32,000 nt of DNA from assembly GCF_008000775.2 (NCBI RefSeq), contig NZ_CP042905.2:3510001-3542000 (forward strand). Direction: 5' to 3'. Under the pieces are notes generated by a model, which saw only the letters and a program-made list of their open reading frames with translations, was not told the DNA's origin and made no database searches. This stretch comes from Promethearchaeum syntrophicum (lineage in GTDB: Archaea > Asgardarchaeota > Lokiarchaeia > Sigyniarchaeales > Promethearchaeaceae). This document shows, piece after piece, positions 8,598-32,000 of the stretch. The position numbers were made by a program, and so were the translations under genes. How positions within the stretch are numbered: position 1 is the stretch's first letter; every line of letters starts with the position of its first letter.

Positions 8598-8648
8598 AAA
8601 AAAACCTATGAGATAATTTCTTATAGAACTTCATTTCCATATATAATT

Positions 8649-10094: not shown

Positions 10095-10120
10095 AGTGCA
10101 ACTTCATTCTTTTATATTAA

Positions 10121-10129
10121 TTTTTTTTT
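10121..10129 (+). terminator. T9 oligo-T terminator after the DUF1624 gene
   Basis: T9 run about 27 nt after the stop at 10092..10094. A second T9 lies near 10190. Confidence 0.4.
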
Positions 10130-10321
10130 AACCTCGAAATTCTTATAAATCTCATCAAAATTTCCCGAGTGAATTTCTAAATTGATTGGTTTTTTTTTCA
10201 TTTTATAGTTCTTTTTTAAGAAAGAGATTTATTTTTTTAATAGTTCATCCAATTCTTTAAATTTCAGTCACTTTGAATATTGGAAGGAAGATGATTTAAG
10301 AGATTTTGGGAGTAAATCAAT

Positions 10322-11575: not shown

Positions 11576-11644
11576 AATAATTTAACAAATGATTTTCATT
11601 TATTTTTCTTATTTTGTCCTTTCTTCAATCAATTTATTGAGTAA

Positions 11645-11657
11645 AAAATATAATTTA
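11645..11657 (+). promoter_or_regulatory. BRE/TATA-like element for the HAD hydrolase gene
   Basis: aaaaatataattta is centred about 26 nt upstream of the ATG at 11676, which is leaderless geometry. Confidence 0.4.
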
Positions 11658-11675
11658 CCTCACATTTATGTCCAT

Positions 11676-12419
11676 ATGCTTCACGCAATTACATTTGATC
11701 TATGGAACACCTTAATAGCAAATCGATTTTATGGAAATCAAAGACTCGATTATCTTATTGATTTCTTACACGATAATTCCTTTAAAGTTTCTTGGGATGA
11801 ACTCAAAGAAAAATATAATCGCGTATTAGAGAAGCACAGAACAACTGAGAAGAAATTTGGAATAATTCATTTTCAATTAGAAGATAGATTGATAGAACTT
11901 TTTACTTCTTTAAACTTGGATATAACTCCTATGCTTCTCAAGAAGATAATAGTAGATTTGGAAGATATAATGATGTTAGATCCTCCTCCTTTAATGGATA
12001 ATGTAAAGGAAACAATAGAATATTTGTCAAAAGATTTTAAATTGGGACTTATTTCTGATACAGGAATTACCCCTGGGAGAGTTTTACGAAAAGTCTTAGA
12101 AAAACATGAAATTCTACGTTATTTTCAAACAACTGTATTTTCAAATGAAACTGGGTACTTAAAACCTAGCAATGTTATGTTTGAAACTGCTTTAAAAGAG
12201 TTAGGGATTAAATCACCGAATGCACTCCATATAGGAGATTTACTGCAAACAGATATTAAAGGAGCTAAAGACTATGGGATGAAAGCAATTTGGATTTCAT
12301 ATGATAGAATTCCATTAGAAACTAATTCTAAAATTCAAATAACTCCTGATTTTATTATTTCAAATATCCAAGAAATAATTCCTATTGTTGAAAAACTAAA
12401 TAAAAAAAATGTAAAATAA
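11676..12419 (+). CDS. HAD-superfamily hydrolase (subfamily IA-like)
   Basis: Motif I ITFDLWNTLI lies directly after Met30 of the track ORF. Motif II is GLISDTG. Motifs III/IV are K...HIGDLLQTDIKGAKDYGMKAIW. I prefer the start at 11676 (track ORF 11589) because of the TATA spacing and the usual N-terminal position of motif I. Confidence 0.8.
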   Translation: MLHAITFDLWNTLIANRFYGNQRLDYLIDFLHDNSFKVSWDELKEKYNRVLEKHRTTEKKFGIIHFQLEDRLIELFTSLNLDITPMLLKKIIVDLEDIMMLDPPPLMDNVKETIEYLSKDFKLGLISDTGITPGRVLRKVLEKHEILRYFQTTVFSNETGYLKPSNVMFETALKELGIKSPNALHIGDLLQTDIKGAKDYGMKAIWISYDRIPLETNSKIQITPDFIISNIQEIIPIVEKLNKKNVK

Positions 12420-17273: not shown

Positions 17274-19142
17274 TCAGTGATCATCTACTTCAGGGGAGCG
17301 AATTCGAGTTATTTTTTTTTTCAGAATTTCTCGCAGTAAATATGCAATAATGATAAGAACAATAACTATTAGAACGGAAAGCCAGATTCCTAATACTTGG
17401 GTTTTTCTACCCATTATAAATATCCCTAATAGAAATGCAATGAAAACACCCATTTTTCTTTTCCAAAAACCATCGCCTTGATTAGACATGACATATTTCA
17501 ACTTAAAAACAAATCGACTAACAAAATTCTTCTCTTTAAGCAACTCATTTTGTTCACTGGAGAGAATTCCAGGTATGTTATATTCATAATTGAAAAATTG
17601 ATTCTTGAGAAATAGAACATTCACAGGCCTAATAATTACATTGAGAGTGAAAATAAGTAAAAGTGAATCACCAAAAATATGCATTATATTCATCCAAATC
17701 ATATTTGGTGAAGTCCAGGGATTAAAATACAATACTCCACTTATATCCAAACCTACCACAAATGGTACAAAAATCATTAGTAAAATGTCGAAGAAATTAA
17801 GTTTACTTAAGCGAAATTCAAATTTATGATCGATTTTATTAAACTTATATATAGATTTAAACCACAACCAGTTTTTCTTAACAATCAATTCTTGATTTTC
17901 ATTTGACTTTAAGATTTTAAAACCATTTTTTGAAGTAGAAAAGTCCTCTTTAATGCCTTTCACAACGAGGATGAATCCAAATATATATAAAACAATTCTT
18001 AATGGATCTCCAGCAAATCTAAATGTAACCACACTAATAATAGCCGTTATGAGAAATATCAATCCGATGATTAAATTCCTCCAATCTTTTATTTGAGTTT
18101 GCTTTAAAATCGACTCATTCTCTCCTGTAACATTCAAATCAAAACAATTGGAAATTGCTTCAACAAGATCTGGATTTTTAACTGCAGGAAGATTGAAATT
18201 AATCTCATATATTTTCTCTTTTGTAACAATCTCTAACAGAGTTTGATGCTTCAATAATAAAATACATAAAGCTAACAGATGAACAAACCCTGTTAAAATA
18301 TAAAATTTACCAACTAATAAACCAGCACCGAACGCGTACGGGTTCAATAGGAAATGAAAGCCATCTGTAAAACATAAAATTAAGTTTAAGGACATCAAAA
18401 TTATCCAGAAATATTTGGGTCCTGTTTTTGCATTAGTCAATCTTGCACTTATTACTTCATCTCTTGGGATTTCTGTCATCCATGGCATTGGAAATCTAAA
18501 TTCTTCTATAAAGTAGAAATTTTTACTCTTTGAAAATATTATATTAACTGATGAAAATATCGAGTAAATTAGAAGCCCTATTCCCACCAATAACATGAAA
18601 GCACTCATGGGAAAGAACATAGAAGGTCCACCTAAGAAAAACCAACTCCCTATATGATTTTCTGTATCAATATCAGTGCCAAATACAGAAATATTAATCG
18701 TTGCCATCCCTATCATTAAAATTGCAGCAATAAATCGACTTTTAGCAAAACTACGAAATTTAACCATATCAATTTCTTTTAGCAATTTCTTTTCCTTGGA
18801 TTTAAATAACAATGATTCACGTTTAGAGCCCCATTTAGGTAAATGGAATGAATTTTCATTATAGTTATTTGTATTCATTAATATCTGAGAAATTAAGATC
18901 ATACTGAAAGTTAACAAAAGCGCGCCGAAAAATACTGAAAGATTGAGGGGCCTAACCTCATTATCATAGGTCATTTCTATCACAAAGGAATCAATAGTCA
19001 ATTCAAAAATAAAGAATAGGATCGAGATCACGAAAATTATTATTCCTAACCAAAAGAAGACCCATTTTAAAATCTTCTTTTTTTGGGATTGTTGTTTTAA
19101 CAAATCCAATTCTTCTTTAGACAAAATTTTTGTACGCTCCAT
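17274..19142 (-). CDS. Large polytopic membrane protein built from repeated TM-hairpin plus about 50-aa soluble modules; unknown function
   Basis: 622 aa. About 12 hydrophobic helices are arranged as six pairs. Five pairs are each followed by a 45-60-aa polar, beta-strand-like insert, and the last by a basic tail. Confidence 0.6.
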   Translation of the reverse strand: MERTKILSKEELDLLKQQSQKKKILKWVFFWLGIIIFVISILFFIFELTIDSFVIEMTYDNEVRPLNLSVFFGALLLTFSMILISQILMNTNNYNENSFHLPKWGSKRESLLFKSKEKKLLKEIDMVKFRSFAKSRFIAAILMIGMATINISVFGTDIDTENHIGSWFFLGGPSMFFPMSAFMLLVGIGLLIYSIFSSVNIIFSKSKNFYFIEEFRFPMPWMTEIPRDEVISARLTNAKTGPKYFWIILMSLNLILCFTDGFHFLLNPYAFGAGLLVGKFYILTGFVHLLALCILLLKHQTLLEIVTKEKIYEINFNLPAVKNPDLVEAISNCFDLNVTGENESILKQTQIKDWRNLIIGLIFLITAIISVVTFRFAGDPLRIVLYIFGFILVVKGIKEDFSTSKNGFKILKSNENQELIVKKNWLWFKSIYKFNKIDHKFEFRLSKLNFFDILLMIFVPFVVGLDISGVLYFNPWTSPNMIWMNIMHIFGDSLLLIFTLNVIIRPVNVLFLKNQFFNYEYNIPGILSSEQNELLKEKNFVSRFVFKLKYVMSNQGDGFWKRKMGVFIAFLLGIFIMGRKTQVLGIWLSVLIVIVLIIIAYLLREILKKKITRIRSPEVDDH

Positions 19143-19148
19143 CTTAAA

Positions 19149-20681
19149 TTAGACCTCCCTATATCCAGATGGTAAAATAAAACCAAAAGCTCTTCCAATC
19201 CAATAAGGTGTAGTAAAAGTCATTCCAGGTTCTTCATGAAGTGGTGCATCATGCCAGTAAGTAGTATTCTCCCATGCATTTCTCTCCCACATGTAATGAC
19301 CAGTTCTTCTATATTCAACTGTTAAAGGTTCTGTAAAATACACATCATCCCAATCGGTTTCAATAAACGCTATATGATATAAACTAGCCCAATTATGATT
19401 ATCAATTTCTGCCTTCCACTGCAATATTTTTTCTACTTCCTTATATTCAGATGGAACAGGCAATAATGGATAATGTCTATCCGGGAAATGATTGATCTCT
19501 AATCGATGTAATTGATCCTCAATATCTCGCTCAATATCAATTCGATCTCCTACTTCAGTACTTAAAGCCAGATATACGATATTGAACCACGCATTTCGAT
19601 GAAATTCAGTGTAATAGCGTAATGTATTCAAATATCCTTTATAATAATGAGACCCAATCTCGGATTCAATGCCTTCTAATAATAGAAATGCAAATACAAC
19701 GCAATGCGCGAAATTGAAGGCATAATAATTCGCCATAACTTCATTTTTTGAACTTTCGGTATTCGCCATAAAAGCCATTTCTGCGCTTACAAAGTGGTGA
19801 TAATCCACTAAGTATTCATCAGGATTTACCATCGAGGCCATTTTAAATAAAAGAGAAAGCCAATATGCCCCAGTATAAACTCTAGGTTTTTGATCGACCC
19901 CAGATGGCCCTCCAGGTCCATTAATACCAAGAAAATTAGTCTCCTTCATATAGTTTGCAATCTGTTCAATTATTAATCCTACGGTTGTTTGAACATAAGG
20001 ATCATCAACATATTTTAGACAAAGTGCTAAACCCATATAGTAACCTCCATATTCATCATTTGAAGTATGACCTCGCCAGCGATATTGAGAGTACTCTCCA
20101 GTGCCATTATAGTGCCGAATGTGCTCATTAAATAGACTTGGGTGAATTTCTTTATGTTCTGGTCCCGCCCATCCTCGACCTAAAATTCCTGGAAATTCAG
20201 GACCTAGCCCCCCATTCGGAACAATCATTAACATAGACATACCGTTAACCATGCGTTTAATAACATCAAGCGAGTATTCTTGATCGGTTGTGTTTCCTTC
20301 GTTTATTGCTGCAACGTAATGAAAAACCCATCCTGCCATAGCAACACCAGTCCATAAAGCTCCATTATCAGAAAAACCATAATTTGCAATATCAGTATAA
20401 TTACCATCCACATAATCGCACGTTGCAGTATAATTTAATGGTAAGTGGTTTTTTTGAAATAAATCATCATATACTCTTGCCATTTCATCTAATCGTGTAT
20501 AATTTGCAGTAATAAACTGATCGATGTCAGGAGGGGGAGCTTCAAATTGAAATGAAAGTATTTCATCATAGATATTGCCAACTCGAATTCCAAAATAAAT
20601 AAAATAACTGAAAGGTGAAACAATGATCAAAATTGTAGATATTAATTTCCAATAAGTTTGGTTTCTGGTTCTAATTCTCAT
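19149..20681 (-). CDS. N-terminally membrane-anchored, probably extracytoplasmic helical-repeat protein with several N-x-S/T sequons; unknown function
   Basis: Single N-terminal TM (WKLISTILIIVSPFSYFIYFGI). Sequons NYT, NYT, NTT, NGT, NTT. Gly/aromatic-rich helical repeats (DNGALWTGVAMAGW, SNDEYGGYYMGLALCL, ANYYAFNFAHC). The track start at 20711 is a TTG without a Shine-Dalgarno-like element, so I prefer the ATG at 20679..20681. Confidence 0.55.
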   Translation of the reverse strand: MRIRTRNQTYWKLISTILIIVSPFSYFIYFGIRVGNIYDEILSFQFEAPPPDIDQFITANYTRLDEMARVYDDLFQKNHLPLNYTATCDYVDGNYTDIANYGFSDNGALWTGVAMAGWVFHYVAAINEGNTTDQEYSLDVIKRMVNGMSMLMIVPNGGLGPEFPGILGRGWAGPEHKEIHPSLFNEHIRHYNGTGEYSQYRWRGHTSNDEYGGYYMGLALCLKYVDDPYVQTTVGLIIEQIANYMKETNFLGINGPGGPSGVDQKPRVYTGAYWLSLLFKMASMVNPDEYLVDYHHFVSAEMAFMANTESSKNEVMANYYAFNFAHCVVFAFLLLEGIESEIGSHYYKGYLNTLRYYTEFHRNAWFNIVYLALSTEVGDRIDIERDIEDQLHRLEINHFPDRHYPLLPVPSEYKEVEKILQWKAEIDNHNWASLYHIAFIETDWDDVYFTEPLTVEYRRTGHYMWERNAWENTTYWHDAPLHEEPGMTFTTPYWIGRAFGFILPSGYREV

Positions 20682-20736
20682 ATAATAAATTTCAATCCTT
20701 AGGTTTTTCAAACTTTCGATATATTACTATATAATT

Positions 20737-22158
20737 ATGAGAGCAGCTTTCGGTAAAATAAAACTCACCCCCAAAGATTATATTGGGAGAAATTTAGCAG
20801 GTTATGTTCCCATCGTTAAATGTAATGGTAAATTAGATGATATTTATGCAAGGGGAGTATTAATTGAATCATCCCACCAACCTGATAATCTTCTTATTAT
20901 TTCGTTGGATTTCTTAAAATTTTCCATAAAACTCTCAAATTATATTAAGGACAAGATATATAGTCGGTATAAAATACCACAAGAACAAATATTACTTCAT
21001 GCAATTCACACTCATAAATCATTCGATTTAGGAAACGAATATAGTTTCTCAGGTGGGGGATTAATAATAATAAAAAATTTACTTTTCGGTCAATATTTTA
21101 CAGACGATAAGTATAAAATATGGGTTTCTAATCAAATTGTAAAACTTGTAGGAAATCTCATAAGGAAAGTAAAACAAAGTGATCCTTGTAAAATTTCATG
21201 GAAAAAGGAAACTATCAAAGATAACATAATTATAAATCGACGCCATCCTGAAATTGAATCAAAATCCCAACTTGGAATTATTAGCTTTAGAAATCTCTCA
21301 AACGAAAAACTAATAGGGATTATTATTAACTTCGGAACCCATCCAACAACCTTAAATCTGACTGTTCGAAAGCTTTCAGCGGATTATCCGGGAAGAGTTT
21401 GCGCACGTATTGAACAGACAACTAATAATCAAATCTCAGCTGTTTTTTTCACAGGTCCTGCAGGAGATTTAAATCCAATAACAACATGTGGTGATGATTT
21501 TAAAGTTCTTACTGAAGATATGACTCCCATATATGACCAAATGGGAACTTATAAGCATACTAAGAAAATTGGTTATTTTCTAGGTGATGAAGCACTTAAA
21601 ATTGCGCAAAAAATCCCCTCGGACGAATATTTTACGGATTTAGATTTTACTGTATATAATCAGTTTTTCGAGATTCCATTTGAGGATTATAAGAAATTCT
21701 GGACATCTAAATCATTAAAATCGAGATTATTGCATCTAATTAAGAAATGTTTCTTATTTCGATTGCCAATTTTTATGGGAAGTCAAAATCCTCCAAATTT
21801 TTCAACTTTTAATATTCGTTATTCTGGGCATAAAATAGTTTCTCAGACTCAGATTCAATTCATACTTATAAAAGCATTTTCAAAATCAAATGAAAGAAAA
21901 AAATCACTATCAATAACTGCAATCCCTGGTGAACTTTTTGAAGAAATTGGTAAAAAAATTCTAAAAAATAGTCCAACAGGAGCAGAAAACTCATTTATTT
22001 TTCAAAATTCGAATGATTGGGTAGGTTATCTATTTCCTCTAAAAGAATATATACTGGTTGGAGGGTATGAGCCTTCAGTTAGTTTTTCTCCCGTAACGGG
22101 TGCCTATGTGCAAAATAATTTTATTAAATTAGTGCATAAAATTAAATCTTCCAAATAA
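20737..22158 (+). CDS. Neutral/alkaline ceramidase-like amidohydrolase (N-terminal catalytic domain only)
   Basis: N-terminal AAFGKIKLTPKDYIGRNLAGY...DDIYARGVLIE...LLIISLDF...LLHAIHTHKS matches the G-x-a-K-x-d-I-T-P...GY...AR...D...ATHTHS pattern. Later FGTHPTTL...LSADYPG and FTGPAGDLNP also fit. No signal peptide, and too short for the C-terminal ceramidase domain. Confidence 0.55.
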   Translation: MRAAFGKIKLTPKDYIGRNLAGYVPIVKCNGKLDDIYARGVLIESSHQPDNLLIISLDFLKFSIKLSNYIKDKIYSRYKIPQEQILLHAIHTHKSFDLGNEYSFSGGGLIIIKNLLFGQYFTDDKYKIWVSNQIVKLVGNLIRKVKQSDPCKISWKKETIKDNIIINRRHPEIESKSQLGIISFRNLSNEKLIGIIINFGTHPTTLNLTVRKLSADYPGRVCARIEQTTNNQISAVFFTGPAGDLNPITTCGDDFKVLTEDMTPIYDQMGTYKHTKKIGYFLGDEALKIAQKIPSDEYFTDLDFTVYNQFFEIPFEDYKKFWTSKSLKSRLLHLIKKCFLFRLPIFMGSQNPPNFSTFNIRYSGHKIVSQTQIQFILIKAFSKSNERKKSLSITAIPGELFEEIGKKILKNSPTGAENSFIFQNSNDWVGYLFPLKEYILVGGYEPSVSFSPVTGAYVQNNFIKLVHKIKSSK

Positions 22159-22170
22159 TAATTCTTTCTT

Positions 22171-23316
22171 ATGTTAGAAAAAGAACCAAAAACAGCATTC
22201 GTGTTTTCTGGGGGAGCTAGTCTTGGCGCTGTTGAAGTAGGGATGTTAAAAGCCATAGTAGAAGAAGGACATACAGCAGACATGGTTTTTGGAACTTCAG
22301 TAGGAAGTCTAAACGGCGCGTTATACGCATTTGATCCTACCATTGAAGGAGTGAAGAAATTAGAGGAAATATGGCGTAAAATTAAAACATTTGATGTTTT
22401 TTCCCCTTCAGTTATAACCCCGATCAAAAATATTGCTACATTTGGTCAATATTTGATATCTCCAAAGAATATAAAAAAATTAATATTGGAGAACATTAAT
22501 TATTCGAGGATAGAACAAACTAAAATTCCCCTTTTCATAACTGCAACAGATATTAATACCGGAGATGAGATAGTACTGAATAAAGGATTAATATTAGAAG
22601 CACTATTAGCAAGTATAGGGATACCAGGGCTATTTCAACCTCAAAGAATGGGACATCGATTGCTAGTTGACGGGGGTTTAGTAAATAATTCTCCAATCTC
22701 ATCCGCTGTTAAACTTGGAGCAGATAAGGTAGTTGTATTTCCTATAGGATTTCCTTATACACCTAATCAAGAACCTAAAAATTTGACCGAGATATTGATT
22801 CGAACTTTTATTTACCTACTTAATCGCCAATTATCTGCTGATTATCATCTTTATAAAGATAAAGTCCAGTTAATTATTATACCCCCTCCAGAAAATATTG
22901 ATGTTGGTCCTCATGATTTCTCTAAATCAGATATATTGATTGATAGATCATATCAAAATACAAAACAATGGCTTATGAAAGGGGGATATTATGATTTAAC
23001 GAGTGAATATAAACATCCTGGTGATATTCATTCTGACATTTTAAACTTATCAGAGGCTGTAAAAACTGAACCAGGGCGACCTGCAAAGGAACGGGTAAAA
23101 GAAAACGTCACACTAATAGGCGCAGCACTTAAAGAATCAATTGCTAAAGAAAAAGCAGAAAGGAAAGAGAAATATCATGCCTCAAAAGAAAAACTTAAGG
23201 AGAACATCTCTGATACGAAGGATGAAATTGAAAAAGCTTTTTCGAATACAGCAAAAAGAATTAAGAAAAAGTATGATAATATAACCAAAAAGAAAGATAG
23301 AAAGAAATTAGAGTAA
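22171..23316 (+). CDS. Patatin-like phospholipase with Lys/Glu-rich C-terminal tail
   Basis: Oxyanion FVFSGGASLGAVEVG, nucleophile GTSVGSLNG (GxSxG), catalytic Asp LVDGGLVNNSP. The last roughly 90 aa are K/E-rich (KEKAERKEKYHASKEKLKE...). It starts 12 nt after the ceramidase-like stop. Confidence 0.9.
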   Translation: MLEKEPKTAFVFSGGASLGAVEVGMLKAIVEEGHTADMVFGTSVGSLNGALYAFDPTIEGVKKLEEIWRKIKTFDVFSPSVITPIKNIATFGQYLISPKNIKKLILENINYSRIEQTKIPLFITATDINTGDEIVLNKGLILEALLASIGIPGLFQPQRMGHRLLVDGGLVNNSPISSAVKLGADKVVVFPIGFPYTPNQEPKNLTEILIRTFIYLLNRQLSADYHLYKDKVQLIIIPPPENIDVGPHDFSKSDILIDRSYQNTKQWLMKGGYYDLTSEYKHPGDIHSDILNLSEAVKTEPGRPAKERVKENVTLIGAALKESIAKEKAERKEKYHASKEKLKENISDTKDEIEKAFSNTAKRIKKKYDNITKKKDRKKLE

Positions 23317-23408
23317 TTTCTATATATTTCTCACTATTAAAGAAATCTAATAAAATTATACCCGGAAAAAGCAATCAATTTTTTTAATTATAAATGAGGG
23401 AATTTAGA

Positions 23409-23957
23409 TTATTTTTCTAGTTTTGAATTACATCCAATGCAAAATTCACTTTCAATACTATTTGAAGTCCCGCAATAAGAGCAAATCGTTACAGTGTTAG
23501 GTTTTGATCCCGGTTCTTTCCTAGAACCCGATTTATAACCAGAATGTGATGTTTTATAAGCTTGACCATATTTATTAACCGGATTTTGTGCATTATTAAC
23601 CCGATTCTTTTGACTAAAAATCTTATTCGCAAAATTCATATATCGTCCCATTATTCGAGAATTTGGAGCAATACCGGAAGCTATCGAGCGATTTCTAATC
23701 CCAATCATTAGAGTTACCACTCCTATAATAATTATAATAAAACCTCCAAAAAAGAAGGGAAACATTAAGAAAATATTATCAAACATGATAGGAACAAAAA
23801 CAGCACAAAAAAAGGTGATAATACCCAATACCATAATTAATGCACCTCCTATCACCTTAAAATTTGATTTGGAGTGATCAGATTGATTAAGGGGATTGTA
23901 AGCTACCATAGTCCAATAACCTAAAATCAACAAGGTTTTTAAAATTCTTGCCTGCAA
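23409..23957 (-). CDS. Small membrane protein with C-terminal zinc ribbon
   Basis: Two to three TM helices (GGALIMVLGIITFFCAVFVPIMF; FFFGGFIIIIIGVVTLMIGI), a polar linker, then CSYCGTSNSIESEFCIGCNSKL. The track start is TTG; an alternative ATG (Met17) is at 23909. Confidence 0.55.
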   Translation of the reverse strand: MQARILKTLLILGYWTMVAYNPLNQSDHSKSNFKVIGGALIMVLGIITFFCAVFVPIMFDNIFLMFPFFFGGFIIIIIGVVTLMIGIRNRSIASGIAPNSRIMGRYMNFANKIFSQKNRVNNAQNPVNKYGQAYKTSHSGYKSGSRKEPGSKPNTVTICSYCGTSNSIESEFCIGCNSKLEK

Positions 23958-24037
23958 ATTTACTTATAAAAATTTAATAATCTAAATATAGAAATTCAAT
24001 TAAATATTTATTAATTTCAAAAACCGAGGTAATTTTA

Positions 24038-25750
24038 TTGAGAAATGCAGAAATGGATAAAGAATGTATAGAAAGATACGATGAAATGAAAAAAAGTAAG
24101 AATAAAATGTTTGATTGGCTAGATTATTGGGCTAAAAAAAAACCAAATGAAATTGCATTGATAGAATACAATACTGGTGCAGAAATAACTTGGAAAGATT
24201 TTGCAACGAAAAGTAAAGCTTTTGCTGCTAAACTTTTATCAATGGGAATTGGAAAAGGGGATGTTGTTGCTACTACTCTAGTTTTATTAAAAGAACATGT
24301 CTATTTAATGTATGCATGTTATAGAATTGGCGCAATTATTGCCCCACTGGATCCAAGGTTGAAAGTGAGCGAAGTAGATTATTGCTTTTCACAAATGAAA
24401 CCCAAAGCATATTTATTTTTAGGTCCCACACCTAATGCCGATTTTAGTAAAATTGCAGCAGCAATGATGGAAAAATATTCTGAATATTGTAAAATATGGA
24501 TTCAATTTACAGGTGAACAAGCGATCCAGGGAGCACAACTGGTTAAAGATTTTGCAATTGATATAAAGAAGATATACATTATACAGGGATTACTCTTAGG
24601 AAAGGTAAAGAAGGCTCAGAAAAAAGTAAAAAGTAAAGATCCTTGTTTGATCATTTTTACCACAGGTAGTACCGGAAAACCGAAACCAGCATTACTATCC
24701 CATAAAGCAATATTAGTCCAAAATATTAGTCTTATGGTTGGGTTCGGTATGAATGAATCTGATAGAATGATAATAAATCTTCCTCCGAGCCACGTCGGAT
24801 GTACAACTGAACAACTCAGTACCACAATTTATGGAGGAGGCGTTTCAGTTTTACTCCATATATATACTCCAGAAAATTCTCTTGATGCGGTTCAAAAATA
24901 TAAAGCCACTTTAATAGGGCAAATTCCCGCATTATTTGCAATGGAGTGGCGCTTACCTAATTATAATGATTATGATATATCTTCTTTGAGATTCGCATTA
25001 TATGGTGGACAATCAGTTACTCGTAAGTTTTTGGAACAACTGAAAGCCATGGCACCTCTTGCCGGTACTGGATTGGGATTAACAGAAACTGCAGGTTTTG
25101 TGACTTATAGCCCTCTAGATGGTACAGTTGATGATATTTTAGCCAGTGTCGGGTATGATTCACCACTTTATCCTATCTCAATAAGAGAGCCATTGAAACC
25201 CGATGGATATGCAGGTGATGAAAAACCAAAAGGAATTGTTGGTGATGTCTGTTTCAAAGGACCTCAGAATTTTTCAGGGTATCTAAATAATCCCGAACAA
25301 ACTGCACAAACAATATCGAAAGATGGGTATTTATATACTGGAGATCTTGGAACTTATGATGAAAAAGGATTGCATTTTGCAGGGAGGGCTAAATTTGTAA
25401 TTAAACCAAAGGGGTATCAGGTTTATCCACCCGCAGTTGAAGAATTTTTAATGGCAAAGCTTAAAGATAAATTGAGTGCGATTGCAATTGTAGGAGCCCC
25501 TCATGAAGTTTTTTCTGAAGGGATTGTTTGTTATGTTGAACAAAAACCCGGTTCAGTTGTTTCTGATGATGATGTCAATACAGCTGCACAAGAAATGGCA
25601 TCTTATAAAAGACCGAGTCATGTTGTCATTTTAGAGCAAGGTGGGATTCCATTAAATCGAGTGGCAAAAACGGATTATAAAACTCTAAGTGATATGGCAA
25701 AGGACCTAACAGAAAAATTGAGATCCGAAGGGAAATGGGACGCTGAATAG
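24038..25750 (+). CDS. ANL-superfamily acyl-CoA synthetase (AMP-forming, fatty-acid--CoA-ligase-like), paralog 1
   Basis: IIFTTGSTGKPKPALLSH (A3), YGGQSV...GLTETAG, YLYTGDLG (A7), GRAKFVIKPKGYQVYP (A8). TTG at 24038 is preceded by GAGGT 9 nt upstream. An alternative ATG is at 24053. Confidence 0.9.
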   Translation: MRNAEMDKECIERYDEMKKSKNKMFDWLDYWAKKKPNEIALIEYNTGAEITWKDFATKSKAFAAKLLSMGIGKGDVVATTLVLLKEHVYLMYACYRIGAIIAPLDPRLKVSEVDYCFSQMKPKAYLFLGPTPNADFSKIAAAMMEKYSEYCKIWIQFTGEQAIQGAQLVKDFAIDIKKIYIIQGLLLGKVKKAQKKVKSKDPCLIIFTTGSTGKPKPALLSHKAILVQNISLMVGFGMNESDRMIINLPPSHVGCTTEQLSTTIYGGGVSVLLHIYTPENSLDAVQKYKATLIGQIPALFAMEWRLPNYNDYDISSLRFALYGGQSVTRKFLEQLKAMAPLAGTGLGLTETAGFVTYSPLDGTVDDILASVGYDSPLYPISIREPLKPDGYAGDEKPKGIVGDVCFKGPQNFSGYLNNPEQTAQTISKDGYLYTGDLGTYDEKGLHFAGRAKFVIKPKGYQVYPPAVEEFLMAKLKDKLSAIAIVGAPHEVFSEGIVCYVEQKPGSVVSDDDVNTAAQEMASYKRPSHVVILEQGGIPLNRVAKTDYKTLSDMAKDLTEKLRSEGKWDAE

Positions 25751-25769
25751 TTATCAATCCAAGTACACA

Positions 25770-25781
25770 TTTTTTTCTTTT
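25770..25781 (+). terminator. T-rich tract (T7cT4) in the 35-nt convergent gap after ANL ligase 1
   Basis: tttttttctttt begins 20 nt after the TAG at 25748..25750. Confidence 0.3.
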
Positions 25782-25785
25782 AATT

Positions 25786-26703
25786 TTAATTGACTTTTGT
25801 TATTCTATTCATTCCCATTATTAAGATATATCCTATTAGCGGGCCAATCACTGCTAATAAAGGTTGATACCATATAAAATTGATAAACATATATCTGACT
25901 GCGATAATTGAACTTGAAAAAAGAATGGTGACCACAACAAAGATTAAACTCCAAAGAAATTCTTCCCCCTTCCCATAAATTTCCAACTCTCCTGATTCTC
26001 GCTTTGGGATCTTGAAAACAGTAAAATATAACCACGAAACCATTGCAATGCCTATGATCATTGACCAAAAAACATCACTTGGGTAATGTTTAACAGCAAC
26101 AACTCTTGAAAACCCCATCAAGATAGCCCATGCAATTGATATCAAAAAAGAAATGACGATTTTCCACGGTTTGTGAGTTTTTGTTATGAAAAAGGCAAAA
26201 GTAATTAAATAAATTGCAATCAAAGTATGACCCGAAATAAAACTACCTTTACTTATCGCATCATCCAAAGAATATTTACCGAATGTCCACATCGGAGAAT
26301 AAAGAGAAAGATCTCCTACCACTTGATATGGTCGTACACGTGCAAAAATCGCTTTGAAAGCCCTTCCAATTATAGTGGTGGATAAACCGACTGCTATCAA
26401 GAAACCAGAATACATTCTCATTGTTTTCATGTATTCTTTTATTGGTTTGATAAATGATATTGGATAAACAATCAAGGATATGATGATAAATATATACGAA
26501 ACATCTTGACCACCAAATCCATCACCATCAAACATAGTACGATTCATAAAAAACGTGATTTTATCCAAAAACGAGCCAGAAATATTCTGTTCTGACCAAT
26601 AGATACTGAAATTTATTTCAATTGGAGCTAAAATGATTGATATAATAATTGAAAACACGAGATACAGAGTTAACAGAAGGAGATTTCTCTTTTTTTTTTC
26701 CAT
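25786..26703 (-). CDS. PAP2-superfamily lipid phosphate phosphatase, paralog 2
   Basis: KAIFARVRP, SFISGHT, SRVVAVKHYPSDV. Same topology and motif spacing as 7731..8597. Confidence 0.85.
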   Translation of the reverse strand: MEKKKRNLLLLTLYLVFSIIISIILAPIEINFSIYWSEQNISGSFLDKITFFMNRTMFDGDGFGGQDVSYIFIIISLIVYPISFIKPIKEYMKTMRMYSGFLIAVGLSTTIIGRAFKAIFARVRPYQVVGDLSLYSPMWTFGKYSLDDAISKGSFISGHTLIAIYLITFAFFITKTHKPWKIVISFLISIAWAILMGFSRVVAVKHYPSDVFWSMIIGIAMVSWLYFTVFKIPKRESGELEIYGKGEEFLWSLIFVVVTILFSSSIIAVRYMFINFIWYQPLLAVIGPLIGYILIMGMNRITKVN

Positions 26704-26758
26704 ATAGATATTTGAAACTTTATATTATAATAAATTTATATTTCATTAGTGAATAAAC

Positions 26759-27325
26759 ATGCAAATTATTACCGAAAACCAATACGAGCAAACGCAAAAG
26801 GAATTTAATCATCTTATTGACATAGGTATCCCACCAGCAAACATGTTAGAAAACAAAATATCATTTACTGTTCGGGATGGTATCGAACATGTAGGTTTTC
26901 TAATGTTAGGAGATTTACTTGTTTTTAAACACGAAACCTCAGTTTTAGAAGCACATCCGTTTCCTGAATGGGTTATACAACTCCACCAAATTGCTAAAAA
27001 AAGTGGAAAAGTATTTGTAATTTTGCCAAAATTTTCGATTAAGCAAATGAAACGTTTAAATAGGAATTCGGTAGATCTTAGAATTGAAAAAACTAAAGAA
27101 ATGCTAGAAAAATTAAATGTGGAAGATTTTATTGCAATTGAATATATTGAGGGAATTAGTATAAAAATTAATGCAAATGTTCCACATGAATTCATAAGTA
27201 TTGTGGGTGAGGGTGAAGTGGTTCCTTATTGCCAAGTTTTCGAACCAGATTTCTCCCATATTTCAGAAACGTTAAAAATTAACTCTACATCATTTTTCGA
27301 TCTGAAAGATAACTTAAAGCTTTGA
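26759..27325 (+). CDS. Hypothetical 188-aa protein, first gene of the PIG-L/ANL operon
   Basis: Coding-like ORF with a TATA-like ctttatattataataaa about 30 nt upstream. There are weak hints of a GNAT-like strand (ISFTVRDGIEHVGFLMLGD) and a cupin-like strand (ISIKINANVPHEFISIVGEG), neither convincing. Confidence 0.55.
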   Translation: MQIITENQYEQTQKEFNHLIDIGIPPANMLENKISFTVRDGIEHVGFLMLGDLLVFKHETSVLEAHPFPEWVIQLHQIAKKSGKVFVILPKFSIKQMKRLNRNSVDLRIEKTKEMLEKLNVEDFIAIEYIEGISIKINANVPHEFISIVGEGEVVPYCQVFEPDFSHISETLKINSTSFFDLKDNLKL

Positions 27326-27331
27326 TGAAAA

Positions 27332-28141
27332 ATGAAGTATTTATTTGTATGTGCTCATCCAGATGATCTGGAGTTTAGCTGTGGGAATCTTTTATATTAT
27401 CTTACACAACACGGCAAGGAAGTCGCAATTTTGTCTTTATCTCGTGGAGAATTTGGCATATTTGAACCCATTTGGAAAGGTCCACGTTTAGCAAAAATAA
27501 GATCTCAGGAACTTAAAAGAGCTTCCAAAATTAACGGCATAGAGAAAAAACATGTACATTTTGGTGGAATAATTGATGGTTTTATTCGGTTCACAAAAGA
27601 AAATGTCAATTTGGTTATTACTTGGATAAATAAATTGAATCCCGATATTATTTTCGCCCCCGAACCATATTTTACTTATTATTGGCACGAAGATCATATT
27701 TCAACGGGAAAAATTTTATATTACATTTCAACTAAACTCCAAAATCGATTAAATAATAAAATTCGTTCCCTATATTACTATACTACAGCCAAAGGCAATT
27801 TTTCATGGCCTTTTAACAGTGCAGAACATAGTTTTAAAGCACTTTATGAACATAAGAGCCAAATGTGGCTACTTAAATGGGCGAAGTTATTTTATCCCTT
27901 AGAAAAACATAATTTTAAGAAACAAAAATTAGGTAATTGGAAAATGGTAGAAATATATAGAAGAGTTTCATTTTATGGTAAACAACCAAAAGCTAATACA
28001 ATTGTTCGGGGAATTCTTGGTCTTATCAGTCAACTCAACATTATTAATCCTCCTGATTCTCATTTTATTCTTCCTGATATGAAAACTGAGTTTGGTCAAA
28101 AAGTTAAGAAATTACGCGCGAGATACAAATTTAAAGATTAA
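27332..28141 (+). CDS. PIG-L / LmbE-family de-N-acetylase, copy 1
   Basis: LFVCAHPDDLEFSCGNLL (AHPDD metal/base motif) and WHEDHISTGK (HxDH). 269 aa. Starts 6 nt after the upstream stop. Confidence 0.85.
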   Translation: MKYLFVCAHPDDLEFSCGNLLYYLTQHGKEVAILSLSRGEFGIFEPIWKGPRLAKIRSQELKRASKINGIEKKHVHFGGIIDGFIRFTKENVNLVITWINKLNPDIIFAPEPYFTYYWHEDHISTGKILYYISTKLQNRLNNKIRSLYYYTTAKGNFSWPFNSAEHSFKALYEHKSQMWLLKWAKLFYPLEKHNFKKQKLGNWKMVEIYRRVSFYGKQPKANTIVRGILGLISQLNIINPPDSHFILPDMKTEFGQKVKKLRARYKFKD

Positions 28142-28197
28142 ATAAAATGATCTTTGATAGTCATAATTTTTTTTAAGCTCACCACAGACAGATAAAT

Positions 28198-29130
28198 ATG
28201 GATGAAAAGAAATTTGAAAATAATTTATGGCCACTAAAATCACCTTGGATATATCCACGAGATAATCAATCAAAGAAATTCCTTAAGGTTATGGTGATTT
28301 GTGCTCATCCAGATGATGCAGATCTTTTAGCAGGAGGTTTAGCCTTAAAATTAACTACTCTTGGTCATAAAATAAAATTCGTTTCAGTTACAAATGGTAA
28401 TATCGGTCATTATAAGATAAATCCAATAGAACTTGCCGCCATTCGTCAAAAAGAAGCAAAAGCTTCAGCTCAAGCACTAGGTGCAGAATATGAATCCCTA
28501 AATATTAATGATGGTCAAGTATATGTAAATCGGGAACAGACTGAAAAAGTAGTAAATATAATTCGAAAATATGATCCTGATCTTGTAATTACACACAGAC
28601 CGACAGATTACCACCGAGATCATAGATATACAGGACAATTGGTTATGGACGCAAGTTACATGTTAATTGTTCCACATTATTGCCCCGAAACTCCTGTTCC
28701 CGCATCAAGAAAAATGCCCGTAATTTGTTATGCATACGATGATTTTCAAAGACCATATGCGTTTGTTCCTAATGTTTTATTGGATGTTTCGGATGTCTAT
28801 AAGCAAAAATCAGCAGCATTAATAAATCACGAATCACAAATGATGGATTGGCTTCCATGGACGATGAATCAAGAAGATATGATTCCGGAAGATTATGACA
28901 TACAAAATCGGCTTGAAGTTTTAGAAATGATGATTATTGCTGTCTTTTCGCGAATATTAACAGATTTTCGTAAATTATGGAGAAAAGGTTATCCAGATAG
29001 AAAAGTAACAAAAGCGGAAGCTTTTGAAATATGTGAATATGGTAGACAGCCCAGTGTGCAAGAATTGAAAGATTTGTTTCCGGGAGCATATATTCCTCGT
29101 AAAAAGGATTTGAAGGAGATGCTAAAATAA
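28198..29130 (+). CDS. PIG-L / LmbE-family de-N-acetylase, copy 2
   Basis: VMVICAHPDDADLLAGGLALKL and DYHRDHRYTGQ. 310 aa. Very divergent from copy 1 outside the motifs. Confidence 0.85.
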   Translation: MDEKKFENNLWPLKSPWIYPRDNQSKKFLKVMVICAHPDDADLLAGGLALKLTTLGHKIKFVSVTNGNIGHYKINPIELAAIRQKEAKASAQALGAEYESLNINDGQVYVNREQTEKVVNIIRKYDPDLVITHRPTDYHRDHRYTGQLVMDASYMLIVPHYCPETPVPASRKMPVICYAYDDFQRPYAFVPNVLLDVSDVYKQKSAALINHESQMMDWLPWTMNQEDMIPEDYDIQNRLEVLEMMIIAVFSRILTDFRKLWRKGYPDRKVTKAEAFEICEYGRQPSVQELKDLFPGAYIPRKKDLKEMLK

Positions 29131-29132
29131 CT

Positions 29133-30890
29133 ATGGTTATTAAACCAGAATATAAAAATGGCGTTCCTATGGTAACTTGGAAGATGTATGAAGAAGATTA
29201 TTCTGATCGACATCTTGTTCATGAGGTTATTGAAAAATGGGCTAAAGAAAAACCAAACGAAATTGCTTTTTATGCTGTTGAAACAAATCAAGAATATACA
29301 TGGAAAGAATTTGATGAGAACGCTACATGTATTTCATTAAAACTAATTTCAATGGGGATTAAAAAAGGAGATTTCATTGCGACCTCATTACCCTTCTTAC
29401 CAGAACATATATTTCTCCAATATGCTTGTTTTAAAATTGGTGCTATTCATGTTCCACTAGATATTAGATTAAAACCAACTGAAGTCATACGTTGTTTAAC
29501 ATTAGTGAAAGCTAAGATATATTTCCATCTAGGAAAGACAGATTTCGCGGATTTTGCTGCATTGGCTGAAATTGTAAGAGATAATTTGGATTTTATCAAA
29601 TATTTTATACAGTTTAGCAAACCAGAGGAATTAATAGAGGAAATCGGAACAGCTAAAATAATTTCCGCATGGGAATTTGCCAAAGATGCACAAAATCTAG
29701 CACTTCAAATTAAAAATGGCGAACATAAGATATTATTAGAAGAATTCGAGAAACTGCATAAAAATATTCAAGAAACTGATGGATGTCAAGTAATTTACAC
29801 AACTGGATCTACTGGATATCCAAAACCCGCACTTTTATCTCATCAAGGAATCACAGTTCAAAATTTGTGTTTAACCCTTGGATTTAACATGGATGAAAAC
29901 GACATTATGCTTTGCAATCTCCCCCCTAGTCACGTGGGCGGGCAAGCGGAGCAATTAATGTCTCCATTTTTTATCGGAGGGAAAGTAGTAGTTATGGAAA
30001 TATTCAAACCAGATCTTTCTCTTGAGTCTATTCAAAAATATCATGTGACAATTATTGGACAAATTCCTGCCCTCTTCAATTTGGAATGGAGATTACCCAA
30101 TTACAATACATATAACCTATCTTCGTTAAAATTCGCCTTATATGGTGGACAATCAGTAGGAAAACCTTTCCTGGAAAAGATGAAATTGATGGCACCGAAA
30201 TTCGGTTCTGGGATGGGATTATCAGAACTTTCCGGATTCTGCACATACACCCCACTCGACGGAACTGTTGAAGATATTCTAAAGGGTATCGGATATGCAA
30301 TGCCGATTACACCAATCTCTATTAGAGAACCCATGAAAGAGGATTTTACTGCGGGTAATGAAAAACTCAAAGGTGAAATCGGGGAAATTTGCTTCTCGGG
30401 TCCACAATTATTTTTAGGATACGTATCAGATGAAGAAAATTCTAGTAATACCACTAGTAAGGATGGTTGGTGTTATACTGGTGATTTGGGTTCATATGAT
30501 GATGAAGGTTTACATTTTGCTGGGCGATCTAAGCTCATGATAAAACCAAAAGGATATAATGTATATCCTCCTGAAGTGGAGAACTTTCTAATGAATGAGC
30601 TCAAAGATAAAGTTGAGAATATTGGGGTAGTTGGGTATGAACATGAAGTATTTAGTGAAGGAATTGTAGCATTTTTAGAAAAGAAAAAAGGTGAAAATTT
30701 AACTGAAAATGAAGTTAATAAAGCCGCTAAAGGACTAGCAGCCTATAAAAGACCATCTTTAATAGTTATTTTGGAATATAATGATCTACCATTAAATCGG
30801 CTTGAAAAAACGGACTATATATCTCTTAAGAATATGGCTGCACAAAAAATCAAAGAATTAAGGAAAAATGGGGGTTGGGATAAAAAATAA
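29133..30890 (+). CDS. ANL-superfamily acyl-CoA synthetase (AMP-forming), paralog 2
   Basis: VIYTTGSTGYPKPALLSH, YGGQSV...GLSELSG, CYTGDLG, GRSKLMIKPKGYNVYP. The ATG is 2 nt after the PIG-L copy 2 stop. By eye it is closely alignable to 24038..25750 over its full length. Confidence 0.9.
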   Translation: MVIKPEYKNGVPMVTWKMYEEDYSDRHLVHEVIEKWAKEKPNEIAFYAVETNQEYTWKEFDENATCISLKLISMGIKKGDFIATSLPFLPEHIFLQYACFKIGAIHVPLDIRLKPTEVIRCLTLVKAKIYFHLGKTDFADFAALAEIVRDNLDFIKYFIQFSKPEELIEEIGTAKIISAWEFAKDAQNLALQIKNGEHKILLEEFEKLHKNIQETDGCQVIYTTGSTGYPKPALLSHQGITVQNLCLTLGFNMDENDIMLCNLPPSHVGGQAEQLMSPFFIGGKVVVMEIFKPDLSLESIQKYHVTIIGQIPALFNLEWRLPNYNTYNLSSLKFALYGGQSVGKPFLEKMKLMAPKFGSGMGLSELSGFCTYTPLDGTVEDILKGIGYAMPITPISIREPMKEDFTAGNEKLKGEIGEICFSGPQLFLGYVSDEENSSNTTSKDGWCYTGDLGSYDDEGLHFAGRSKLMIKPKGYNVYPPEVENFLMNELKDKVENIGVVGYEHEVFSEGIVAFLEKKKGENLTENEVNKAAKGLAAYKRPSLIVILEYNDLPLNRLEKTDYISLKNMAAQKIKELRKNGGWDKK

Positions 30891-31543: not shown

Positions 31544-32000
31544 TCATAATATCATTTTAAACCTTTCAACAAGAATTTTTCCTTCAATTTTTTCGTCTGT
31601 CATTATTTCTACACGTGGATTCCATTCCAATTTTTGTATTTGACAATCATTTTGAAATATCTTAAAAATCCAATGGTAATGGTGCAAAAATTCGAAATAT
31701 TCCTGCATTTCAATATTTTGCCATTTGGAAAAATTTGCAACCCGAATTCTTCTGTCCTTTTCCTTTAAATCATAAACACAAGTTGGAACAAACCCACTAC
31801 TAGTAATAACCTTCATAATTGCAAGATTTCCAACCATGGATTCAAAATCTTTAAATTGTGAAATTTGAAGTGTAATGTTAACGGATTTCATTCGATTGGG
31901 GTTTACATCATTTAAAAAATCTAAATTATTAATCGATTCAATTGCAATTGCTAAATTTCTTGAATCAGGGGCACTATAATTCGAATATAAAAATTTCTTT
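31544..32000 (-). CDS. Hypothetical protein, N-terminus truncated by the window edge
   Basis: The reading frame of the 31544..31891 track ORF stays open upstream to position 32000 (..KKFLYSNYSAPDSRNLAIAIESINNLDFLNDVNPNRMKSV..), so the Met at 31891 is probably internal. No family recognised. Confidence 0.45.
   Translation of the reverse strand, partial: KKFLYSNYSAPDSRNLAIAIESINNLDFLNDVNPNRMKSVNITLQISQFKDFESMVGNLAIMKVITSSGFVPTCVYDLKEKDRRIRVANFSKWQNIEMQEYFEFLHHYHWIFKIFQNDCQIQKLEWNPRVEIMTDEKIEGKILVERFKMIL

Follow-up and report, generated by a model that had tools for sequence, protein, structure and literature searches.

Gene content of the locus

We analyzed a 32,000-nucleotide (nt) stretch of DNA (NZ_CP042905.2, positions 3,510,001-3,542,000; hereafter, the window) from Promethearchaeum syntrophicum MK-D1, a cultured Lokiarchaeon, with emphasis on two adjacent genes that encode a predicted de-N-acetylase of the PIG-L/LmbE family (PIG-L B) and an adenylate-forming enzyme of the acyl/aryl-CoA ligase type (ANL2). 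A preliminary description of this DNA, made from the sequence alone, had placed both in a tightly coupled four-gene operon, a candidate module for deacetylation and re-acylation, the first gene of which encodes a 188-aa protein. Its four open reading frames (ORFs), all on the + strand and separated by gaps of 6, 56, and 2 nt, were exactly reproduced in their coordinates. Loci of relatives that were compared with the window are designated L001-L007, L011, L049, L087-L089, and L170-L173. The region contains the following features.

26759-27325, + strand: 188-aa cupin-fold putative metalloprotein (DSAG12_03775); no Pfam or NCBIfam match, assignment from an AlphaFold2 (AF2) model and Foldseek
27332-28141, + strand: PIG-L A, divergent second deacetylase paralog, 269 aa; Pfam PIG-L, 81.7 bits
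28142-28197, + strand: 56-nt spacer between PIG-L A and PIG-L B with cATAATTTTTTTTAAg; T8 at 28167-28174
28198-29130, + strand: PIG-L B, predicted cytoplasmic Zn-dependent de-N-acetylase (PIG-L/LmbE, CE14 fold), 310 aa; Pfam PIG-L, 106 bits
29113-29135, + strand: PIG-L B/ANL2 junction, with AAGGAGA within the 3' end of PIG-L B, TAA, a 2-nt gap, and the ANL2 ATG
29133-30890, + strand: ANL2, class I adenylate-forming acyl/aryl-CoA-ligase-type enzyme, 585 aa; AMP-binding, 201 bits, and AMP-binding_C, 28 bits

Conservation of the PIG-L B-ANL2 pair

The conserved unit at this locus is formed by two genes, PIG-L B and ANL2, and not by the four-gene operon. PIG-L B was adjacent to an ANL2 ortholog in 10 of 10 archaeal loci (the window and nine others), which cover Promethearchaeum, other Lokiarchaeia, Sigynarchaeota (L089), Hodarchaeota (L170), and one bin labeled Bathyarchaeota. 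In eight of the loci (L006, L007, L087-L089, L170, L172, and L173), the start of the ANL gene ranges from a 4-nt overlap with PIG-L B to a 12-nt gap after it. In the most divergent one (L171; PIG-L B, 48% identity), the two genes are divergent neighbors 280 nt apart. PIG-L B identity across the archaeal pair loci was 48-91% and locus GC content was 0.31-0.64, and the genes flanking the pair were entirely different from locus to locus. The ANL2 orthologs in the nine other loci were 56-91% identical to ANL2, each being nearer to it than to ANL1, a paralog encoded elsewhere in the window. Equal-sized longest contigs in the PIG-L B and ANL2 homolog lists, several of them <10 kb, point to ~13 additional pairs.

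Relatives of PIG-L B number in the thousands, with identities of 48-93% for Asgard proteins and 40-46% for bacterial ones, which are the nearest relatives outside the Asgard archaea. Among the matches listed, none of 79 bacterial loci had an ANL gene within 10 kb of the PIG-L B ortholog (10/10 archaeal versus 0/79 bacterial loci, which are not phylogenetically independent; Fisher p ~2e-13). Because the bacterial orthologs never have an ANL partner in this sample, we regard the ligase as an Asgard-specific, always-retained addition. Constant retention of the ligase is expected if both enzymes are needed for one product.

By neighbor joining, the PIG-L-linked ANLs formed one clade, and they co-diverge with PIG-L B. 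A shared-contig test revealed no PIG-L linkage for the sister ANL clade (55-58% identity) or for a nested 576-aa Thorarchaeota group. Likewise, at least 16 loci of metagenome ANL relatives (43-62% identity; GC content, 0.48-0.65) had no PIG-L gene and no common neighbors among the matches listed, and with no neighbors in common their context was uninformative about the ligase substrate.

A natural in-frame PIG-L::ANL fusion of 915 aa (P0278/P0193, MHA1371840.1) is encoded on a 5252-bp Promethearchaeota contig, where the stop codon and the first five ANL codons have been lost. The fusion is present on this one contig only, and relatives that are at least 90% identical have two consecutive genes (MHA1700605/MHA1700606). 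The window, L006, L088, L089, L170, L172, and L173, in which the two genes are unfused, each have a GGAG(G)-like motif 9-14 nt ahead of the ANL start. The PIG-L B/ANL2 junction is thus consistent with translational coupling, with the GGAG-like motif doubling as conserved codons.

The tight coupling proposed earlier therefore holds for PIG-L B and ANL2, given the short or overlapping junction, the adjacency in all 10 loci, and the fusion, and it does not extend to the four-gene module. Gene order PIG-L-PIG-L-ANL, which the preliminary description had suggested checking across archaeal genomes, proved to be restricted to the genus. As a conserved unit, the four-gene operon was rejected, because its full order recurs only in L006 (84% identical) and a TumE-like ORF precedes PIG-L A in L007. 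No PIG-L-ANL pair in archaea, and no characterized system with this architecture, was found in the literature searched, in line with the earlier expectation. Neither family is new, nor is the logic of deacetylation followed by acylation; the novelty lies in how strictly the two genes are paired, in the distribution of the pair among Asgard archaea, and in the fusion.

Predicted properties of PIG-L B

PIG-L B is well above the cut-off of the Pfam PIG-L profile (106 bits versus 28.2). Its zinc triad and catalytic residues, H37/D39/D40 (AHPDD) and H139/D141/H142 (HRDH), were invariant across 19 PIG-L B homologs, and it also keeps R83, E86, and D105, at positions common to sugar-acting PIG-L enzymes. 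The AHPDD and HxDH motifs had been reported for both PIG-L copies of the window, and the catalytic residues are indeed intact in both. No signal peptide or membrane segment was recognized in PIG-L B or ANL2 when the sequences were read by eye.

The AF2 model of PIG-L B (predicted local distance difference test [pLDDT], 89.6) matches the fold of all solved PIG-L enzymes. Pyrococcus diacetylchitobiose deacetylases (Dac) were its best structural matches (E 1e-15; template modeling [TM] score, 0.69-0.72; 25-29% identity), followed by BshB, TT1542, LnmX, and MshB, with Dbv21/Orf2* last (TM ~0.5). In Pch-Dac, the acetyl-methyl pocket consists of Ile46, Phe219, and Trp227 (PMC9779004). These residues align with L43, M215, and W221 of PIG-L B, which suggests that its acyl pocket is small, hydrophobic, and acetyl-sized. 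Its C-terminal region (residues 220-310) has no invariant His among the 19 homologs. BshB1 (TIGR04001 equivalog) was the top curated family match of PIG-L B, at 119.9 bits, under the cut-off of 182.5; PIG-L A scored 60.9 bits, so that neither protein is assigned to this family.

Among the matches listed, genes neighboring the bacterial PIG-L B orthologs encode Tat-signal GFO/IDH/MocA oxidoreductases (15 of 79 loci) and Amidohydro_2, CBM9, and enolase-superfamily proteins. In a Prolixibacteraceae locus (L011), a neutral-ceramidase-like gene (10001-12210; 68 bits, above cut-off) is directly downstream of the PIG-L B ortholog, and another bacterial locus (L049) has a ceramidase-like gene 3 kb from it. 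These genes echo the ceramidase-like gene near the pair in MK-D1, L006, and L087.

Predicted properties of ANL2

ANL2 matches both AMP-binding (201 bits) and AMP-binding_C (28 bits) and has all motifs of a class I acyl/aryl-CoA ligase. That the ligase keeps the ANL core motifs, as noted previously, was confirmed: TTGSTGYPKP (A3), G-L-S-E365 (A5), YTGD451 (A7), GRSKLMIKPKG474 (A8), and K559 (A10) are invariant among orthologs, with T223-K231, E365, Y448-D451, R465/K471/K473/G474, and K559 as the invariant positions. K473 and G474 are typical of CoA-thioester-forming ligases. Among solved sequences, 4-coumarate-CoA ligases and luciferase-type fatty-acyl-CoA synthetases come nearest, and the top NCBIfam match is the PRK06187 long-chain subfamily (NF004837; 247.3 bits, under the cut-off of 476). 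ANL2 is below all curated cut-offs, and its substrate is therefore not assignable.

In acetyl-CoA synthetases, a Trp two residues before the A5 T-E (WWQTE) closes the acetate pocket. The corresponding segment of ANL2 is G360-M-G362-L-S-E365, with an invariant Gly (G362) two residues before S364-E365. ANL2 thus has Gly at the Trp position, and no acetyl-CoA synthetase model was among its top NCBIfam matches, so it is not placed among acetate-specific ANL enzymes. Considering the acetyl-sized pocket of PIG-L B on the one hand and G362 together with the medium/long-chain and aryl ligase matches of ANL2 on the other, the two enzymes probably act on different acyl groups.

PIG-L A

PIG-L A matches Pfam PIG-L (81.7 bits; cut-off, 28.2) over its N-terminal half only (residues 4-129). 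H9/D11/D12 (AHPDD) and H119/D121/H122 (HEDH) are invariant in its alignment, which places it in the PIG-L family, and the closest solved sequence and structure family is the same as for PIG-L B, the Thermococcales Dac enzymes. The two copies had been described as very dissimilar, and they share 30% identity restricted to the N-terminal 138 residues. The PIG-L A family is rare: a search of 1.84 billion proteins gave 14 representative clusters at E<=1e-30, and orthologs (83-85% identity) are beside the pair only in L006 and L007, both from Promethearchaeum. A second PIG-L gene also adjoins the pair in L087 and L088, where it is encoded on the opposite strand and shares 29% and 24% identity with PIG-L A, respectively; none was found by the pair in the Sigyn, Hod, and other loci. 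PIG-L A was accordingly rejected as a conserved partner of the pair. A second deacetylase is instead a recurrent, non-orthologous accessory in Lokiarchaeia, which weakly echoes the earlier idea that the two deacetylases serve two steps.

The 188-aa cupin and the PAP2 cluster

Thirty-five homologs of the 188-aa protein (41-100% identity) were found, of which few are named, the named ones all being Promethearchaeota. DSAG12_03775 of P. syntrophicum is 100% identical to it; an exact-sequence look-up of the protein gave no record. No Pfam match was obtained even at E<=1, there was no NCBIfam match, and a profile search of the family against PDB sequences found nothing. Across 24 sequences, E64-x-H66-PFP-E70, P142-H143, and PYCQVFEP are invariant. 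The AF2 model (pLDDT, 92.9) has a helical insert (helices 94-117), and its top Foldseek matches in the PDB were all cupins or other double-stranded beta-helix proteins (DUF4867 SqvB, RmlC, AllA, and JmjC; TM, 0.4-0.53). Based on the fold and the two-motif metal site pattern, we are confident in predicting a cupin-superfamily protein, a putative metalloprotein with an H66-x3-E70...H143 site.

Metal ligands of SqvB are His99, Glu103, and His150 (PMC11968277), and this H-x3-E...H spacing is the same as in the 188-aa protein. The DUF4867 (SqvB/SftX) and AllA/RmlC cupins share the double-stranded beta-helix with it but have no detectable sequence similarity (TM ~0.5), and the helical insert is present only in the 188-aa protein. 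No profile match placed it in DUF4867 (PF16161-type), a family for which we know of no activity. Gene partners differ as well: sugar-catabolic genes for the DUF4867 type and PAP2 phosphatases for the 188-aa protein.

The 188-aa gene adjoins PAP2 genes in L001, L002, L003, L006, and L087; in L087, it lies between two of them. In L001 and L002/L003, the cupin gene is flanked by PAP2, with a ceramidase-like gene, a major facilitator superfamily (MFS) transporter gene, and the genes of a ~500-520/620-aa protein pair nearby, and with no PIG-L and no ANL gene. In its most divergent relatives (L004/L005), the cupin gene overlaps a UbiE-type methyltransferase gene, and a CN-hydrolase gene also follows. 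It is absent from eight of the 10 pair loci, including that of the congeneric Promethearchaeum sp. CSMAG_2442 (L007; PIG-L B, 91%), where a TumE-family toxin-like ORF (110-487; 60 bits) is upstream of PIG-L A with no cupin gene. Because of the PAP2 synteny and the absence from most pair loci, we assign the 188-aa gene to a PAP2-centered cluster.

The preliminary description had nominated the 188-aa protein for the missing acyltransferase step and had called for a structure search. The Foldseek search matched cupins and not a known acyltransferase fold, and the candidate was discarded on the cupin fold and the PAP2 synteny, together with its absence from most pair loci. The cupin represents a new family that goes with PAP2 phosphatases in a cluster conserved among Lokiarchaeia, and in Promethearchaeum the pair is placed behind the genus-specific PIG-L A and a cupin gene from the neighboring PAP2/lipid cluster.

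The Lokiarchaeial cluster around the cupin occupies positions 7731-11575 and 17274-27325 of the window, in MK-D1 in two parts ~17 kb apart, and is also found in L001, L002, L003, and L087. It encodes two PAP2 proteins, an MFS transporter, a ceramidase_alk-like protein, a patatin-like lipase, the ~500-520/620-aa protein pair, and a 481-aa membrane protein. The last has a near-full-length Acyl_transf_3 (AT3) match of 12.4 bits (24.6 in the L002 ortholog), both below the cut-off. The cluster looks like one for lipid or glycolipid head-group processing.

Transcription signals

Upstream regions of the archaeal loci were read by eye. A GAAA(C/G)TTTA(T/A)A box ~30-45 nt upstream of the cupin start is conserved in the window, L006, and L004. 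It fits an archaeal BRE/TATA promoter (BRE, transcription factor B recognition element) in the 55-nt divergent region 26704-26758, which is shared with a PAP2 gene on the opposite strand (PAP2b). The cupin and PIG-L A genes are probably co-transcribed across the 6-nt gap in MK-D1.

In the spacer, cATAATTTTTTTTAAg lies 21-35 nt before the PIG-L B ATG. The same box is present in L007, and in L006, L087, and L088, AT-rich boxes precede PIG-L B by 20-40 nt. This element could be an internal promoter of the TATA-like type, from which a near-leaderless transcript of PIG-L B and ANL2 would start, or, alternatively, an oligo-T terminator. In every other lineage, PIG-L B has an upstream intergenic region of 100-260 nt, and therefore the pair may have its own promoter in MK-D1 too.

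Genomic context of the pair

No other pathway gene was common to all 10 pair loci. In L087, the pair abuts genes that look biosynthetic: UDP-N-acetylglucosamine (UDP-GlcNAc) 3-dehydrogenase-like, PseC/LegC-type sugar aminotransferase-like, and GlmS isomerase domain-like. Other settings look catabolic. The ANL gene of L171 is co-directional with an N-acetylneuraminate-lyase/DHDPS-family gene and a sulfatase gene, a glycyl-radical enzyme and its activase are encoded near the pair in L089, and thiolase, MaoC, and peptidase genes are near it in L172. An ArgE/DapE-type M20 deacylase and an MFS transporter are encoded near the pair in L006 and L007. Context does not settle the direction of the pathway, biosynthetic or catabolic.

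A ~410-aa DUF362 plus 4Fe-4S protein (Npun_F2552-family-like) is encoded just upstream of the pair in L089 (5568-6803), L170 (501-1733), and L173 (5689-6915), and the protein at 5880-7052 in L172 has Fer4 domains only. The DUF362/4Fe-4S protein could be a third component in Sigyn/Hod-type lineages.

Possible function of the pair

Our preferred reading, to which we give a probability of about 0.35, is that PIG-L B and ANL2 exchange an N-acetyl group for another N-acyl group on an amino sugar. PIG-L B, as a cytoplasmic zinc amidase, would strip the N-linked acetyl from an amino sugar or glycoside of the GlcNAc type and leave a free amine. With ATP, ANL2 would convert a different, larger acid, which may be medium-chain, branched, or aryl, to its acyl-adenylate or acyl-CoA, and the activated acyl group would replace acetyl on the freed amine. 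Transfer might be performed by ANL2 itself as an amide-forming ligase, following the logic of MshB to MshC and BshB to BshC, or by an acyltransferase encoded elsewhere. The pair, its conservation, the fusion, and the intact catalytic motifs of both enzymes are observations; that the substrate is a sugar, that the pocket is acetyl-sized, that ANL2 is specific for acids other than acetate, and all of re-acylation are inferences. Three points favor N-acyl exchange: the ligase is retained obligatorily and specifically in Asgard archaea, a fusion exists, and the pocket does not match the ligase. The mismatch mildly favors removal of acetyl and attachment of another acyl group over hydrolysis followed by activation of the released acid.

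Several points weigh against N-acyl exchange. No acyltransferase of the GNAT, LpxD/NodA-like, or condensation type is conserved beside the pair in the 10 loci, and the pair has no linked gene for a glycosyltransferase, flippase, or lipid carrier. The preliminary description had recognized no acyltransferase in the operon, and no acyltransferase family was found among the genes called next to the pair; in the window, only the weak AT3-like membrane protein is encoded, 17 kb away. Direct amide formation by ANL2 is hypothetical, and K473/G474, typical of thioester-forming ligases, are kept. In structure, PIG-L B is closest to the catabolic diacetylchitobiose deacetylases, its bacterial orthologs sit among carbohydrate-processing genes in the matches listed, and the catabolic-looking settings of L171, L089, and L172 point in the same direction. 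The pocket arguments rest on alignments, not on ligand-bound structures, and we know of no N-acyl-glucosamine compound from P. syntrophicum.

A bolder version of N-acyl exchange is doubtful at present. PIG-L B and ANL2 would form a complex acting as an acyltransferase-independent exchange machine, in which the ANL enzyme ligates a fatty or aryl acid directly to yield N-acyl-glucosamine glycolipids or glycoconjugates. In Lokiarchaeia, such a module would be located beside the PAP2/ceramidase-like/AT3-like membrane-lipid cluster.

The alternative that survives best, though we consider it unlikely, is catabolism or salvage, in which PIG-L B would hydrolyze the N-acyl amide bond of an amino-sugar compound that is imported or recycled, and ANL2 would convert the released acid to its CoA thioester. 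Such a route is self-contained: the second enzyme consumes what the first releases, so that two enzymes suffice, and channeling would be in keeping with the fusion. The kinship of PIG-L B with the chitin-catabolic Dac enzymes suits it, as do the neighbors of the bacterial orthologs (GFO/IDH/MocA in 15 of 79 loci, CBM9, enolase-superfamily, and Amidohydro_2, among the matches listed), the catabolic-looking neighbors in L171, L172, L089, and L006/L007, and the abundance of hydrolases in the window (patatin, a ceramidase-like protein, and PAP2). However, an acetyl-sized PIG-L B pocket is at odds with a ligase that lacks the acetate-pocket Trp and has medium/long-chain and aryl matches. AMP-forming activation of acetate would be energetically pointless in an acetate-excreting fermenter, and the window has an ADP-forming acetyl-CoA-synthetase-type gene at 2898-4406. 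Salvage also leaves unexplained why the Asgard lineages never lose the ligase, whereas the bacterial orthologs listed manage without one.

It is also conceivable, but in our view improbable, that the two enzymes modify two groups of one scaffold, with PIG-L B deacetylating an amine and ANL2 activating a carboxylate of the same molecule for CoA-dependent breakdown or amidation. The substrate of BshB1, the best curated match of PIG-L B (119.9 bits), is GlcNAc-malate, which has carboxylates, but the score is below the 182.5 cut-off. Linkage of the L171 ANL gene with the N-acetylneuraminate-lyase/DHDPS-family and sulfatase genes would fit such a scaffold, and obligatory pairing and fusion suit two steps on one substrate. 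Yet ANL2 resembles fatty/aryl-CoA ligases, with no sugar-acid-activating ANL among its matches, and no further pathway gene is common to the 10 loci.

Regulation of one enzyme by the other appears very improbable. Acetylation of the A10 lysine reversibly regulates many ANL enzymes, AcuC and sirtuins reactivate acetyl-CoA synthetase, and in Bacillus subtilis the deacetylase gene is beside the ligase gene. By analogy, PIG-L B might remove an inhibitory acetyl or acyl group from K559 of ANL2, for which the strict adjacency and the canonical P553-x5-K559 spacing of ANL2 speak. Against this, PIG-L B keeps sugar-binding residues, its 40-46% identical bacterial orthologs have no nearby ANL among the matches listed, and a regulator fused to its target would be unusual; we know of no PIG-L enzyme that deacetylates proteins.

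The full four-gene model, in which the 188-aa protein supplies the N-acyltransferase step, draws on the co-directional genes with gaps of 6, 56, and 2 nt and on the order kept in L006, but it is hardly tenable for a cupin with an H-x3-E...H site that has PAP2 neighbors, is absent from eight of the 10 pair loci, and is followed by methyltransferase and CN-hydrolase genes in its most divergent members.

Comparison with known systems

The closest logic to N-acyl exchange by PIG-L B and ANL2 is that of mycothiol (MshB/MshC) and bacillithiol (BshB/BshC) synthesis, in which a PIG-L deacetylase frees the 2-amine of a GlcNAc-glycoside and an ATP-dependent ligase acylates it with no acyltransferase. 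MshC and BshC are, however, cysteine ligases of other folds and not ANL enzymes, and the MshB/MshC and BshB/BshC genes are neither fused nor overlapping. No glycosyltransferase of the MshA/BshA GT4 type is linked to PIG-L B-ANL2, and ANL2 looks like an activator of fatty or aryl acids.

Dac of the Thermococcales, a CE14 enzyme of the archaeal chitin pathway, has the zinc triad and, by alignment, a similar acetyl-methyl pocket in common with PIG-L B. Unlike PIG-L B, it has no ligase partner and works with a glucosaminidase, a kinase, and the GlmD deaminase. Catalytic His259* of Dac comes from the C terminus of a neighboring subunit, whereas the C terminus of PIG-L B is different and longer and has no invariant His.

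Removal of an N-acetyl group followed by addition of a longer acyl chain is known from teicoplanin/A40926 (Orf2*/Dbv21 and an acyltransferase), tunicamycin (TunE/TunC), LpxC/LpxD, and NodB/NodA. All of these depend on a dedicated acyltransferase with acyl-CoA or acyl-ACP (acyl carrier protein) as the donor. No acyltransferase is conserved near the pair, and LpxC and NodB have other folds. With no dedicated N-acyltransferase gene beside the pair in the 10 loci, it does not belong with lipoglycopeptide-type modules. The teicoplanin-type analogy drawn in the preliminary description likewise fits poorly with the structural comparison, in which Orf2*/Dbv21 were the most distant PIG-L structures (TM ~0.5, versus ~0.7 for Dac).

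In glycosylphosphatidylinositol (GPI) synthesis, the PIG-L and PIG-W steps place de-N-acetylation directly before an acyl-CoA-consuming step, as proposed for the pair. The pair differs in having no linked PIG-A or PIG-W homolog, and PIG-L B has no membrane anchor. An interpretation in terms of GPI anchors was set aside on the lack of linked PIG-A/PIG-W and because, outside the Asgard archaea, the closest relatives are found in bacteria.

Neither enzyme family is unusual, and it is their strict Asgard-wide pairing that marks an amino-sugar pathway in archaeal relatives of eukaryotes. If a longer acyl group does replace acetyl, sugar head groups would be subject to fatty-acyl chemistry in an archaeon whose membranes are isoprenoid, which is relevant to the "lipid divide" and to how GPI-like chemistry arose. 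A direct exchange machine would imply a GPI-like or lipid-A-like building block with a fatty acyl group in the archaea most closely related to eukaryotes. If the pair is catabolic, it would define how N-acylated amino sugars are exploited by these archaea of the sediment. Because the module is small and soluble and comes from the cultured MK-D1, direct in vitro tests are feasible.

Other features of the window

Three further features lie near the four genes.

24038-25750, + strand: ANL1, ANL2 paralog (52% identity) without PIG-L linkage; Pfam, alignment
25786-26703, - strand: PAP2b, PAP2-superfamily membrane phosphatase, divergent from the cupin gene; PAP2, 76.3 bits
30920-31414 and 31544-31891, - strand: pair of convergent ORFs (164 and 115 aa) past the end of ANL2; no family match

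ANL1 is located between a transmembrane/zinc-ribbon gene and PAP2b. It is missing from the corresponding position in L006 (84% identical relative), and its placement here is therefore MK-D1-specific. No PIG-L neighbors of ANL1-type relatives were found in metagenome contigs among the matches listed. The positions downstream of ANL2 in L006 and L007 are occupied by the M20 (ArgE/DapE-type) deacylase and MFS transporter genes and not by the two ORFs of the window. In keeping with its lokiarchaeal origin, the window has a GC content of ~32% and encodes an EMC3/TMCO1-like protein and a Roadblock/LC7 protein.

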